Source: a virus. From it: a DNA stretch of 5,642 bases. The notes under the pieces were generated by a model, which was not told where the DNA came from, searched no databases, and was given only the letters and a program-made list of their open reading frames with translations. The DNA lies in the IMG/VR virus record IMGVR_UViG_3300035646_000027; one strand, written 5' to 3'. The translations under genes were made by a program, and so were the position numbers. Below are positions 2,102 to 5,642 of this stretch, piece by piece. Numbering within the stretch: the first letter of the stretch is position 1; every line of letters starts with the position of its first letter.

Positions 2102-2140
2102 CGTGCGCGTGTACGCGCGTTTCGCGCGTGCGCGTGCGCG
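2102..2140. repeat. GC-rich alternating purine-pyrimidine tract, (GCGCGT)n-like, with Z-DNA potential. It folds as a hairpin with an ACGCGCG-TTT-CGCGCGT core stem.
   Basis: The perfect 7-bp stem is 2113..2119 / 2123..2129 with a 3-nt loop. It can extend to 2102..2140 with G:C pairs interrupted by T/G mismatches. It is a roughly 80% GC island in an otherwise AT-rich intergenic region. Confidence 0.55.
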
Positions 2141-2219: not shown

Positions 2220-3239
2220 TTACAAAATACCACGTTTTTTCGTTTGTTTTTTGGTGACACGTTCTTTGGTCTCTAAGACGGTTTTATAGTCTTGATTCTC
2301 TAGCTGTAGTCTCTTTTCTTTCATTGCGTTTTTTTGTCGGTTTTGCTTAATTCTCCACAATCTTTGTGGGTTTTCTGCTTCCATCTGTTTTTCATAGTAT
2401 CTTGGAATTTGTGCCCGTTTTCCGTTGACGCATTGAATGTAACCTTGTCGCCAGATTTCCGCTTTGTGCTCTTGATAGTAGTGGTCTCCAAGTCCTGGCT
2501 TTAAGCTCATGCAAGCAAATGGTTTTGTTTGCCCTAGTTCATAGTACGAATTAGCTTTTTTGCCGTCTATTTCGTACATTTTTTTTGTAACGTATCCTGC
2601 AACATATCGATACGTTTCTGGAACTGCTTGTGCTATCTGGATTTGTCCCATTCCCCACAGGTCTGCTAACCATTTACTGGTATAGTATCCGTTGTGGTGA
2701 ATTTTGTACAGATTTTCTAGGTCTGTTGGTTTCCAGCCGTATAGTATCATATGGTAGTGTGGCCTTGCTGTCTGTTCTCCGTACTCACCCGCCACAAAAT
2801 AGCGTAATTTGCCCTTGTAAGCCTTCCTGAGGCGTTTTAAGAATTTTTGAATATCTTCATACAGCAAAATTTGAACACTGCTAGGGCGCTTCTTTCCCGG
2901 CTTCCACGTGTATTGTACCTTTCGCATGATTTCCCCAGTTTTTACTATCATGCCCGGTACATGTTCATCATCATAAGTTAGTGTTATAAACCAAACTTCT
3001 TCTTTTGGATAGTCTCGCGCCTCAAGCTCTATGCGTGTTGTCCAGTCCTCTCGTTGTCTAATTCTGCATCCGATACATTGCCCGCATGGAATCAACATGA
3101 CTTTTGGATTATACATCAAATCTTCATATCTCAGCTGTTTCCCGCTTAACTGAGAAAAGCGGGCGAGTGAATATACCCGCCCGCTCTGTTCTCTATCATC
3201 CGGGTTGTACAGCCTTATTAGCGGCTTGTAACAACTCAT
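2220..3239 (-). CDS. VP4: Replication initiation protein VP4, an HUH rolling-circle endonuclease related to phiX174 gene A protein.
   Basis: 339 aa. It has a CxxC zinc-finger-like motif (PCGQCIGCR), motif [11 protein letters not shown], motif [10 protein letters not shown] and motif [14 protein letters not shown] (compare phiX174 A protein YVAKYVNK, with two catalytic Tyr). A weak SD GGGTGA lies 9 nt upstream. The ATGA overlap with VP2 indicates translational coupling. Confidence 0.9.
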
Positions 3240-4099
3240 TTCAGATAATCACCCGGCTTTCTCTTCTCTCCGTATTTTCCTGTCTTGTCCTGCGGGTTCA
3301 TTGCTCTGTTTTCTTTGTTTTTCGGTTTCGGAGTTGGCACTGTCTGTTCGGTCTTTTCCATCTGCTTATAGGTTTTGAGCAAATCTTCTGTCAGCTGCAC
3401 TGGACTACTATAGCCTGTGCTCATTTGACTGCCTACGGCTTCTGCCAGCTGATACCATTGTGATTTACTTTCACTTCGGCTGTAGTAACTGTTTGGCACG
3501 TTGCCGTTTAGCGTAGACACTCCCAGTGCGCTTGACGCTGGCATTCCCATGCTTGCGCCTGTAATTGTTGCGCCTGCGCCCCCTGGCGTGCTTGCTCCAC
3601 CCTGTGCGTATGCTAGAATTGGGTTCAGCCCGGCTTTTCGCATGTCTTCTACTGTTCTTTGGTATGCTGTATTGCTCATGCGCTCTTGGAATTGTCTGTT
3701 TGCTAGCGCTTCGGCTGAATTGTATGCCATTGCTGCGTTGTTTTCTATGTGGTTGTAAATGCCCTGTTGAATTGCTGATAACGTATTATAGCCCATTTGC
3801 ATTAACATATTTTGGCGGTTCGTTTTGCTTTGGAAGGTATTCTGCCCGCTCTGCCACTCATAGTATTTGTTGAGGTAATCCATGATTTGCTTGTCGTTTG
3901 TTCCTCCTTCGCTCATGGATGTACTCTGTCCCCCGCCTTGGCTTTGGCTCATGTTGCTACCTTGGCTCTGGTTCTGGCTTTCCTGTCCAAACATGCTTGA
4001 TAGGCCGTTTCCTATCAGTGACATTCCTGTTGTTACGATTTCTGGATGACTTGCTAGCCATGTTCCAGCGCTTGTTAACATTGCTCCTAGTCCTGCCAT
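3236..4099 (-). CDS. VP2: Minor capsid / DNA pilot protein VP2.
   Basis: The 287-aa ORF lies immediately downstream of VP1. It has a low-complexity Q/G/S/N/M-rich segment ([26 protein letters not shown]) and the segment [37 protein letters not shown], which resembles the conserved core of gokushovirus VP2. Its TGA stop overlaps the VP4 ATG (ATGA). Confidence 0.8.
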
Positions 4100-4139
4100 A
4101 ATCTAAAGTAGCCCGCAATAATGCGGGCTTCCTCCTTTC
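4100..4139 (-). promoter_or_regulatory. Structured leader between VP1 and VP2. A strong SD AAAGGAGGA lies 31 nt upstream of the VP2 ATG, and an 8-bp hairpin (AGCCCGCA-ttat-TGCGGGCT) occupies 20 nt of the spacer.
   Basis: The minus strand reads taa-aaattgtacaaaaaaacgaaaGGAGGaAGCCCGCAttatTGCGGGCTactttagattATG. The stem is 4110..4117 / 4122..4129. There is no other SD near the VP2 start. Confidence 0.4.
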
Positions 4140-4156
4140 GTTTTTTTGTACAATTT

Positions 4157-5642
4157 TTAGAGTTTCTCAAGCCCTGGTACGCTGTAGAGAGGAATGCAGC
4201 GCGTTGTATTGTTCATTACTCGAATCGCTCCAAAAAACTGCGGTTCGTCCTGAACGATTAGCGTCCTTGCAATTTCTGTTTTGCCCTCGCTCATCCACTC
4301 TTGACTTAGTGTCGGCACTTTGTCGTATTTGTCCGCATAGTGCCAGAAGTCCAGCGTTCCATCTGCGTTACTGCGCATTTTACCACTTACCCTGTCCGGC
4401 TTCATGCGATAGTCTGCCCAGGCTTCCTGATAACCGAAGGTCTCATTATCTGTGCTCGTGCCAGTCAACATGATTTCTTTTTTCTTGACAGGCTGTTCGC
4501 CAATATTTGCGAACTGCGGGAAATAGAAGTCCAGTCTGTCTGAACGGCTCCAGAAGCGTTCAAGGCCCTGCTGATAGCTTCTGTTATGACGTACACACAT
4601 GACACCGATAACAAATCCGTGTTCCTCAAAGCTCTTTGTGAAACTGCTTTCGTTGATAGGTGTTACCGACATTGCACCCGTTTCACCAATAGGCGTGTCG
4701 TTTGCGGTCTGCTGTCCGCTGGTCTGCACGATTTGGTTAATATTTACGTGATAGCGTCCGCCACCCAGATATTCAGGTACCTGAACCGTTTTATCGCTGA
4801 TGCTTACGCCAAAAATTGCACGTACCTGCTCGCGGTAGCGACTGCCGCCGCGTGCCAGCGCTTCGTAATAGTGTTGAACTGCAAAAGCTTGCCGTAGCTG
4901 GTTGATGGTGATTCCTGATACGTTGCTTAGGTCTGTTGCCAATGTTGCAATGTTTGCGTCTGTGCTTCCGCTTGCTGATGCTCCATTGATTTGCGCCGCG
5001 TTTTTCACTGGGTTATTCAAATAATTGTTGTTTTCAATAAATGGTGTTGCGCCGCCGATGCCGTTTAGCCAAATTCTGTCTGCTACGTCTTCACCAGTGA
5101 CATTTGTTACTCTCACTGGTGCTTTTCCTGCAATTCCGACTGCTACTTCCGGCCCTCTCTGCGGATACGGCAGACAGCTTGTAAAGTAGTCGTGGAATTT
5201 TGAGACCGGGAGACAGCGCCCGCCTGCAATTGCTTTCAGTAAGGTATTTTCTTCCTTTTCTTCTCCTTTTGGGTCGTCTCGATATTTTATATCTTCATCA
5301 TCTGTTTTGAATAGCGCTGCATTTCCTACGTTCTGATCTCTGAAGAATTCGTTCCAGATTTTAACGTATGCTCTTACTGGTAGTGCATTGATTTCTACTC
5401 TCCTGTTTTCCTCGTGACTGAATATTTTTGTGGGTACTCCCATGTAGTCAAGGATTGATTCTTCGAAAGGTACTGCATCTTGCGGCGATTCGATTATGAT
5501 TTTTGGCACTCTGTAGGTTTTTTCCGGTTCCCACGGTGTTTGCTCTACTTCACCCATGAAGTATTTGAAGTTGTCCCATAGGATTCTATTAGGACAAAAG
5601 AAGTAGTAAAAATCGATGTATGCATCATCGAAAACAGGATAT
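4157..5642 (-). CDS. VP1: Major capsid protein VP1 (Microviridae F-like jelly-roll capsid). This segment runs from the junction to the stop codon, and the gene continues upstream into 1..273.
   Basis: Six-frame ORF 4157..5557, 466 aa. The minus frame stays open upstream through 5558..5642, reading ...YPVFDDAYIDFYYFFCPNRILWDNFKYF-MGEVEQ.... The motifs YVKIWNEFFRDQN, RFWSRSDRLDFYFPQF and a G/S/N-rich variable insertion are typical of gokushovirus VP1. The TAA stop is at 4159..4157. Confidence 0.9.
   Translation of the reverse strand, partial: YPVFDDAYIDFYYFFCPNRILWDNFKYFMGEVEQTPWEPEKTYRVPKIIIESPQDAVPFEESILDYMGVPTKIFSHEENRRVEINALPVRAYVKIWNEFFRDQNVGNAALFKTDDEDIKYRDDPKGEEKEENTLLKAIAGGRCLPVSKFHDYFTSCLPYPQRGPEVAVGIAGKAPVRVTNVTGEDVADRIWLNGIGGATPFIENNNYLNNPVKNAAQINGASASGSTDANIATLATDLSNVSGITINQLRQAFAVQHYYEALARGGSRYREQVRAIFGVSISDKTVQVPEYLGGGRYHVNINQIVQTSGQQTANDTPIGETGAMSVTPINESSFTKSFEEHGFVIGVMCVRHNRSYQQGLERFWSRSDRLDFYFPQFANIGEQPVKKKEIMLTGTSTDNETFGYQEAWADYRMKPDRVSGKMRSNADGTLDFWHYADKYDKVPTLSQEWMSEGKTEIARTLIVQDEPQFFGAIRVMNNTTRCIPLYSVPGLEKL
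5564..5642. repeat. Second copy of the 79-nt terminal redundancy (circular permutation overlap).
   Basis: Identical to 1..79. Position 5564 corresponds to position 1. Confidence 0.93.

Follow-up and report, generated by a model that had tools for sequence, protein, structure and literature searches.

Hairpins that act as replication signals in one DNA strand only are of an already known kind, described as single-strand origins (sso) and single-strand initiation sites (ssi) (PMC5714925). The closest described systems are the sso of pT181/pMV158-type plasmids, the hairpins B and C of f1/M13 and the ssi of phiX174 and G4. Here we analyse an alternating CG/TG hairpin, called the CG hairpin below, in the IMG/VR virus record IMGVR_UViG_3300035646_000027. 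The whole stretch of 5,642 nt is referred to as the window and is a complete gut gokushovirus genome. The CG hairpin lies on the + strand between a DnaA module of bacterial oriC type and a hairpin with a phiX-like nick core. We tentatively read it as a candidate sso/ssi-type single-strand origin just 5' of the nick, within the origin region of the gokushovirus. To our knowledge, neither viral- nor complementary-strand origins have been mapped in any gokushovirus, and these viruses are among the commonest human gut phages. Our literature search found no paper on this hairpin, or on DnaA boxes or trios in Microviridae.

Like the sso and ssi systems, the CG hairpin is a non-coding, strongly folded element of one strand. 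It is modular and dispensable, its structure is kept more than its sequence, and it stands directly 5' of the candidate nick in a hairpin array after the last gene. Unlike these systems, it is formed by a single 20-bp alternating CG/TG stem with a loop of 3-8 nt, and it has neither the RSB and CS-6 of ssoA, nor the promoter-like mismatches of f1, nor the PriA site of phiX174. Its folding strand is antisense to the genes, so its membership in the class needs a polarity that is unproven.

In the basal unwinding system of oriC (PMC8287927), tandem DnaA boxes are followed by a spacer of about 4 nt, by at least three DnaA-trios that read 3'-GAT-5' on the opposite strand, and by an AT-rich element. 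The trio sequence of C. difficile is 5'-CACCTACTACTATTACTACTATGA-3' (PMC7561715). In B. subtilis, the top strand 5'-CTACTATTACTTCTACTA-3' is bound by DnaD and the bottom strand by DnaA (PMC10201434). The context of the CG hairpin (1980-2034) resembles these origins in its tandem boxes in TTATCCACA orientation, 4-nt spacer, CTA-repeat trios and AT tract, with the same order and spacing as in B. subtilis, C. difficile and at least 120 matches of our bacterial scan. Unlike them, it belongs to a 5.6-kb rolling-circle phage encoding its own HUH Rep. Its distal trios are CAA CAA, and its AT tract of ~12 nt is followed by hairpins in place of dnaN.

A comparison with the d(CG)n and d(TG)n tracts of Z-DNA shows two alternating runs of 18-19 bp with conserved alternation as the common feature. 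The central loop, the strand-specific wobble and the compensatory A-T pairs are different; they show selection on an intrastrand fold and do not call for a bacterial Z-DNA reader. For the nick hairpins of rolling-circle replicons (pT181 IR-II, pMV158, the stem-loops of CRESS-DNA viruses and the phiX174 origin), the likeness is with the neighbouring hairpin at 2176-2207, which has the phiX-like ACTTG|ATA in its loop. The CG hairpin itself is unlike them, with a 3-nt variable loop that contains no conserved sequence and so no nick site. Three aspects are new here: the alternating-CG stem has a fixed length, it is coupled, in a microvirus, to a DnaA unwinding module resembling that of the host, and it raises the question of polarity.

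The features that carry the argument are the following.
2100-2142, + strand: alternating CG/TG hairpin, with arms 2100-2119 and 2123-2142, loop TTT at 2120-2122 and a 20-bp stem
1832-1935, + strand: DnaA-box-like repeats TTTTCAACA / TTTTAAACA, with TTTCAAC at 1833, 1842, 1854, 1896 and 1927
1980-1987 and 1988-1996, + strand: tandem DnaA boxes TTTTCAAC and TTTTCCACA, abutting
1997-2000, + strand: spacer TACT between boxes and trios
2001-2021, - strand: DnaA-trio array, + strand CTA CTA CTA CGA CTA CAA CAA, - strand 3'-GAT GAT GAT GCT GAT GTT GTT-5'
2023-2034, no strand assigned: AT-rich tract TTATATAATAAA, candidate DNA-unwinding element (DUE), in the place of the AT-rich DUE of the bacterial oriC matches
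2176-2207, + strand: candidate Rep nick hairpin of 12 bp, with loop TACTTGAT at 2188-2195 and ACTTGATA at 2189-2196

Fold, conservation and strand specificity of the CG hairpin

The initial annotation singled out 2102-2140 as an isolated GC-rich alternating tract that forms a hairpin, and such a tract is present. Its G+C content is 77%, compared with ~35% for the intergenic region minus this island, and the perfect hairpin ACGCGCG-TTT-CGCGCGT at 2113-2129 is the core of the 20-bp stem. The strict purine-pyrimidine alternation that was described holds for two long runs, 2102-2120 (19 nt) and 2123-2140 (18 nt), but not for one continuous run, as the TTT loop interrupts it. These two runs are the longest in the genome (next longest, 13 nt). 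The argument from restriction sites is incorrect in detail, since GCGCGC (BssHII) is found neither in the island nor elsewhere in the genome; the island holds 7 of the 14 genomic CGCG and 5 of the 22 genomic GCGC. The whole of 2100-2142 is made solely of CG, TG and TA steps plus the TTT loop, and TRF identifies GCGCGT x2.8 at 2124-2140.

On the + strand the stem contains 16 Watson-Crick and 4 G.T pairs, and the same four positions are A.C mismatches on the - strand. The DNA fold of the + strand reaches -22.8 kcal/mol (z = -4.6), which is matched by 0 of 200 dinucleotide shuffles, while the - strand reaches -14.9 kcal/mol (z = -0.45), like shuffled sequence. The same asymmetry is observed with RNA parameters, at -39.7 kcal/mol (z = -6.2) for the + strand and -25.1 kcal/mol (z = -2.5) for the - strand. 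The stem is flanked by GGTCTAACG on the + strand and GGTAAAATAG on the - strand, and no T-tract follows it on either strand. At the island, a scan for promoters and terminators lists neither a promoter on the + strand nor a terminator. No Rfam covariance model matches the region at E <= 1. No conserved open reading frame (ORF) covers the island, just one 23-codon GTG frame.

The exact 24-mer of the island has no match in IMG/VR, and the element is conserved in shape, not in sequence. We collected 80 IMG/VR relatives with a VP4 83-96% identical, 70 of them with both flanking anchors, and a CG element is found at the same site in 68 of these 70. In GenBank, gut gokushoviruses sampled from the faeces of pigs, humans and monkeys come closest (77-82% identity); each of the six GenBank relatives examined has its own, different alternating-CG hairpin in the same place. 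A later set, picked by the DnaA motif, comprises 60 main-clade genomes and 27 members of a second clade, whose VP1 and VP4 are only ~45% identical to those of the window and whose origin block is nearly identical. By a strict criterion the element is present in 53 of the 60 main-clade genomes. On inspection the others comprise four partial copies and three genomes truly without it, two of these three being complete, with terminal repeats. A truncated hairpin is seen in a few contigs (L067, L338, L420 and L353). In the second clade, 9 of 27 members carry the element. Taken together, a hairpin of this type is found at this position in ~95% of the close relatives and in one third of the second clade.

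The modal stem has 20 bp among 48-62 distinct sequences, and of the 46 distinct variants in which 16 or more pairs form, 44 have exactly this length. The loops are 3-8 nt long, pyrimidine-rich on the + strand and variable (TTT, CTT, CTAT, TAGTTTT and others). Both hairpin sequence and loop vary freely inside one VP4/VP1 type. When 25 variants are aligned without gaps, pairing holds in 99.4% of the cells, and both sides have changed at 7 of the 20 pairs. Of 500 shuffles, none attains the observed pairing, the covariation score or the number of doubly changed cells, and two attain the count of pairs changed on both sides. With the partner register shifted by +/-2, pairing is still 88-92%, as the sequence is repetitive, and the double changes are lost. 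The fixed 20-bp length, the compensation and the retention in relatives support the view that the CG hairpin is under selection. A drifting copy number free of structural constraint, as expected of a neutral microsatellite, is not what is found. Thus, the claim of the initial annotation that retention implies function is strengthened by the presence in most relatives, the stem fixed at 20 bp and the compensatory changes. The conservation that it set as a check is there, and an unconserved tract of variable copy number is not seen.

A generic scan of IMG/VR with CG/TG 17-mers returns mostly G+C-rich tailed phages. Among the matches listed, three distant microviruses (VP4 ~30% identical) also bear CG hairpins. 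In two of these three, the wobble orientation relative to VP4 seems by eye to be reversed. One distant, G+C-richer microvirus (L195, a 4,617-nt IMG/VR contig with a VP4 ~30% identical) has TTGTCCAC repeats at ~4,080-4,220, two direct and two inverted, a sequence that is the actinobacterial type of DnaA box. A CG hairpin with a TTT loop is found ~70 nt downstream of these boxes, and its T-containing strand is the box strand.

The pairing itself is strongly strand-specific. Our stem search treated G.T and A.C equally, and the 62 distinct 20-bp stems comprise 982 Watson-Crick, 253 G.T and 5 A.C pairs on the + strand (1,240 pairs). Earlier subsets gave G.T to A.C ratios of 181:11 and 199:11. The + strand fold is the stabler one in 59-60 of the 62 variants, and TG steps outnumber CA steps on this strand by 318:70. 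In the arms of the coding strand, T faces A in 100 cases and G in 11, which indicates that selection removes mismatches in the + strand fold. Pairing within one strand only, as expected of a single-strand signal, is thus found. By these counts, selection has acted on pairing in the + strand alone, which is the strand antisense to all genes. The other hairpins of the region also lean towards the + strand, with G.T against A.C-type positions at 71:28.

Two simpler sources of the asymmetry were considered and rejected. On the gene-sense strand, the excess of G>A over C>T is just 1.4-fold at third positions of VP4 and 1.3-fold in the non-coding block that is conserved, so a mutation bias of 1.3-1.4x faces 50:1 in the stem. 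Avoidance of a hairpin in the gene-sense strand is rejected as sole cause, because T is mostly opposite A and mismatches in the + strand are avoided. Purine-pyrimidine alternation is retained at 2342 of 2356 steps in the 62 variants; elsewhere, transversions make up 28% of changes in VP4 and more than half in the non-coding block. Since such alternation is expected if the stem changes only via G.T intermediates, it is not independent evidence for Z-DNA.

The DnaA module and the candidate nick hairpin

The window represents a circular genome of 5,563 nt with 44.5% G+C. Its ends share a 79-nt direct repeat (1-79 / 5564-5642), which is the assembly overlap, and VP1 spans the circle junction. All genes are located on the minus strand, namely the major capsid protein F/VP1, the Rep VP4 (3239-2220), an M15 peptidase (1730-1347), ORF5 and a scaffold protein, as assigned by Pfam. 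The sole large non-coding region is 1731-2219, and it contains the CG hairpin.

Left of the hairpin, TTTCAAC is found six times, always on the + strand and between 1833 and 1987, with 1.2 expected and 0 of 200 shuffles reaching this number. The box TTTTCCACA at 1988-1996 is the sole exact TTWTNCACA in the window. As in the oriC basal unwinding system, 1980-2034 contains a tandem box, at least three trios at most 16 bp from the box and an AT-rich region, all in the correct orientation. The window at 1832-2034 reads as a complete basal unwinding system of bacterial oriC type in a microvirus, predicted to bind DnaA and to be unwound by it. The DnaA block is invariant in 66 distinct relatives save for the fourth trio, and it is common to the ~45%-identity clade too. 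In many relatives the CG hairpin begins 2-6 nt past the AT-rich tract. The + strand of the trio array is the side of the DnaD-recognition element. To be noted, the distal trios CAACAA at 2016-2021 amount to a change of TnnT to AnnA, like the change engineered in B. subtilis against DnaD binding. In B. subtilis this change weakens DnaD binding and leaves unwinding by DnaA unaffected (PMC10201434).

We scanned bacteria, one genome per species, for TTWTNCACA-N4-CTACTACTAC and obtained at least 120 matches. Nearly all of them consist of tandem boxes, trios and an AT tract, followed by the start of a dnaN-like ORF. The presence of dnaN behind the motif was confirmed by Pfam in Lachnospira multipara and in one Clostridia metagenome-assembled genome. 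The origin of Lachnospira multipara ATCC 19207 (L254 4835-4905) reads TTTTTAAAC TTTTCCACA CTGC CTACTACTACGACTACGAAAATATATAT. This dnaN-proximal origin shares the box and the trio string of the phage, is nearly identical to the phage module and is the closest among the matches listed. In IMG/VR the pattern of box, spacer and trios is found in 116 stretches, and 87 of the 108 newly fetched ones are microviruses by tblastn. A Lachnospira-like origin module agrees with the host inference of Roux et al. 2012, in which Clostridiales hosts were inferred for M15-peptidase gokushoviruses. In the classical gokushoviruses phiMH2K, Chp2 and SpV4, neither a comparable DnaA module nor a CAACAAGTTATATA block is present, and therefore they cannot be used to calibrate the polarity.

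On the other side, read 5' to 3' along the + strand, the CG hairpin is followed after 33 nt by the candidate nick hairpin. The nick of phiX174 is CAACTTG|ATATTAATAAC (gene-A site CAACTTG|ATA), and its record annotates the origin at position 4306. The core of this gene-A nick site is ACTTGATA, which occurs as a single copy in the window when both strands are counted, with 0.17 expected. The loop CTTGATAGG is invariant across the two clades and the stems are fully compensated. In the main clade, CCCAG/CTGGG changes to CCAAG/CTTGG or CCTAG/CTAGG, and GTACC/GGTAC to GTGCC/GGCAC or GTTCC/GGAAC. In the second clade and in MT135268 the stems are wholly different. These compensations were read directly from the sequences, as MAFFT set the two clades in different registers. 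The rare unpaired variants are G.T on the + strand by 12 vs 3. An invariant loop on a co-varying stem has the look of a Rep nick hairpin, for which 2176-2207 is a candidate. In phiMH2K (L084), we observed CTTGATAG at ~4365 minus, on the strand antisense to VP4, which may be a chance match (~0.14 expected).

The same hairpin, read as 2207-2176 with the T-run 2175-2166, matches an intrinsic terminator on the - strand and looks like the terminator of VP4. It is the sole site reported by the terminator scan. A further hairpin separates the AT-rich tract from the CG hairpin in the window, as part of an insertion that includes 2035-2063.
2064-2097, + strand: hairpin module AATAGGGATTAC / GTACTCCCTATT, present in window-type relatives only (WIN, L004, L010, L001 and L003)

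In the relatives, the segment from the AT tract to the homologue of 2176-2207 is a mosaic of swappable hairpin modules, for example AAAGGGGTTGACTTAAAAGTCAACCCCTT, GCGCCCCAATCATGGGGC and GGGGGTAGGCCTATCGGCCTACCCCC. Depending on the lineage, such modules have been inserted to the left or to the right of the CG hairpin.

Polarity and a possible single-strand origin

In the reading that we tentatively prefer, the Rep VP4 would nick the + strand in the loop of 2176-2207, within 5'-CCTTACTTGATAGG-3', at 2193|2194. If Rep nicks the + strand in this loop, the + strand is the displaced strand and would be released as single-stranded DNA (ssDNA). The CG hairpin, being just 5' of the nick, would be displaced last. 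Hairpins B and C of the f1 intergenic region and the sso of rolling-circle plasmids are placed likewise. It would then stay folded and free of single-stranded DNA-binding protein, and host RNA polymerase or primase would start the opposite strand at this fold. An alternating CG sequence would provide a very stable self-complementary stem that can drift only by C-to-T transitions via G.T intermediates, which would also keep the purine-pyrimidine alternation. The hairpin would be an accessory, absent from some complete genomes, as plasmids lose or swap sso cassettes. This single-strand origin requires that the + strand is displaced and possibly packaged, which has indirect support only and is unproven. 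The suggestion of the initial annotation that the tract is a structural origin element or ssDNA signal points in the right direction, as far as a conserved + strand hairpin in the origin region goes.

Substitution patterns give a view of the exposed strand. Eight alpha3-like coliphages, which are known to carry the coding strand in the virion, were analysed with the parsimony pipeline applied to the window clade. On their coding strand, C>T is 2.0x G>A (3.3x at third positions) and G>T is 2.6x C>A (4.9x), with 51% T and 10% A at third positions. The coding strand of the window clade is the mirror image, with G>A 1.4x C>T, C>A 5-6.8x G>T, and 37-42% A and 15-16% T at third positions. Candidate hosts have 38-47% T at third positions; therefore the skew is not host codon usage. 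The damage-type skew thus lies on the + strand, and it is suggestive of exposure of the non-coding strand as ssDNA, although selection could also produce it.

Several points weigh against a single-strand origin on the displaced + strand. The nick is assigned by an 8-nt identity with a distant phage that was noticed post hoc, though the placement of ACTTGATA in a loop makes a chance match much less likely. The nick hairpin doubles as the VP4 terminator look-alike on the - strand. The CG hairpin contains no ssoA signature (e.g. CS-6 TAGCGT), no RSB, no G4-type set of three hairpins and no PriA site, and its loop is variable. The hairpin is missing from two thirds of the second clade and from a few complete genomes of the main clade, so it cannot be the sole complementary-strand origin. 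The coding strand of phiMH2K, which is assumed to be positive-sense, is likewise A-rich and T-poor, and hence composition skew by itself argues only weakly for an exposed + strand. Furthermore, all experimentally characterised Microviridae, as far as we know, package the mRNA-sense strand. If this clade does so too, the + strand is never free in rolling-circle replication and the sso reading fails.

A wider proposal, possible but held with more doubt, is that this clade packages the strand antisense to its genes, perhaps together with other gokushoviruses with an A-rich coding strand, and would be the first negative-sense Microviridae. A captured oriC module of Lachnospiraceae type would recruit DnaA, the Rep nick hairpin would be on the non-coding strand, and the CG hairpin would be the complementary-strand origin. 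By our analysis one CG tract is turned into a concrete origin map on the + strand, with DnaA boxes and trios, AT tract, strand-specific hairpin and nick hairpin. If this map is true, a rolling-circle phage has copied the origin-opening motif of its host's chromosome, which would be a new kind of host dependence, and the motif becomes a handle for host prediction towards Lachnospiraceae or Clostridia. Counting G.T against A.C in conserved hairpins would then tell the functional single strand of uncultured ssDNA viruses. The assumption that all Microviridae are positive-sense would need an experimental check.

Other readings and minor features of the window

Under a canonical polarity, the leading alternative is a CG hairpin that helps to open the origin. 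A DnaA filament on the trio strand, which is gene-sense, would melt the AT tract, and the freed + strand would fold into the CG hairpin, lock the bubble and leave the gene-sense arm open for Rep or helicase. The module is correctly oriented for this and DnaA binds the strand opposite to the folding one, so that pairing would be needed in one strand only. The distance of 2-6 nt past the AT tract in many relatives fits, as does an extrusion that is energetically plausible only with help, at a threshold of sigma -0.03 to -0.05. However, 22-70 nt and other hairpin modules lie between tract and hairpin in the window and in several other types, and some genomes have the same DnaA module without the hairpin. 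The bacterial oriC matches listed are generally without such a hairpin. Neither the + strand preference of the other hairpins nor the + strand nick motif is explained. We consider an origin-opening role unlikely.

A role in the double-stranded replicative form, where Z-DNA or a cruciform would serve as supercoil sink, sensor or protein site, is improbable in our view. The tract is Z-prone, longer than the ~12-14 bp of CG-rich alternation that Z-DNA takes, and across the variants 2342 of the 2356 steps alternate, even though transversions are frequent outside the stem. One relative, KT264793, even has a continuous 46-nt alternating tract without a loop. Rough thresholds, computed with literature parameters, are sigma ~-0.043 to -0.049 for the B-Z transition and ~-0.03 to -0.05 for the cruciform. 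Such thresholds are above the typical unconstrained supercoiling in cells, which counts against Z-DNA; both structures are thus possible in vitro and doubtful in vivo. In Z-DNA or a symmetric cruciform the two strands are equivalent and TG and CA steps should be equal, yet the pairs stand at 253:5. The alternation is likewise the product of a G.T-mediated, transition-only path, and nearly all variants keep a non-alternating pyrimidine loop. The Z-DNA explanation of the initial annotation is therefore set aside, given the 253:5 ratio of G.T to A.C, the A-T pairs opposite and the loop that is kept.

Equally hard to credit is a packaging or Rep-termination signal on the + strand, acting on the last DNA displaced in each round. 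It draws on the same strand specificity and position as the single-strand origin, and in f1 the packaging hairpin sits in the same hairpin array. But a freely varying sequence and loop speak against recognition by a sequence-specific protein, and the element is optional.

Still less probable is an RNA element, either the 5' stabilising hairpin of an antisense transcript from TATAAT or a back-up terminator or roadblock for VP4 read-through. An asymmetry of G.U type is the classical sign of a transcribed strand, RNA of + sense folds strongly (-39.7 kcal/mol, z = -6.2), and a TATAAT at 2026-2031 is a few nt ahead of the stem in many relatives. Yet the scan gave no + strand promoter, there is no -35 element and no terminator for such an RNA, no U-tract follows the stem on either strand, and Rfam has no match. 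The stem begins anywhere from 2 to 70 nt past TATAAT, and the fold in the mRNA sense is the weaker of the two. With no T-tract after the stem and a weak mRNA-sense fold, the pause or roadblock suggested by the initial annotation finds no support. Its location downstream of a terminator is right in that a terminator match exists, but only on the - strand, at 2207-2176 plus T-run.

A neutral CG/TGCGCG microsatellite, or else an artefact of assembly or amplification, to which the short tandem units found by TRF, the truncated versions in a few contigs and one relative resembling a pure (GCGCGCGT)n array could be ascribed, is very improbable, as the 20-bp stem is fixed across independent assemblies from many samples and hosts with compensatory A-T pairs, only 5 A.C mismatches are found in 1,240 pairs, and the element is retained across lineages at 45% protein identity.

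Two further hairpins are found to the left of the CG hairpin. One stands amid the DnaA-box repeats.
1943-1980, no strand assigned: perfect 13-bp hairpin AGTGCTTTTTCTT / AAGAAAAAGCACT

Elsewhere in the window, the Rfam Termite-leu RNA matches weakly at 3102-3189 minus (26 bits vs gathering 51, E = 0.017); the match sits in the VP4 coding sequence and is most likely due to chance. The second hairpin, 1776-1804, overlaps a sigma-70-like promoter of the peptidase operon on the - strand. This promoter was identified by eye (TTGACT, 17 nt, TATAAA, ~1790-1755), and it is unlisted by the scan since its -10 hexamer ends in A.

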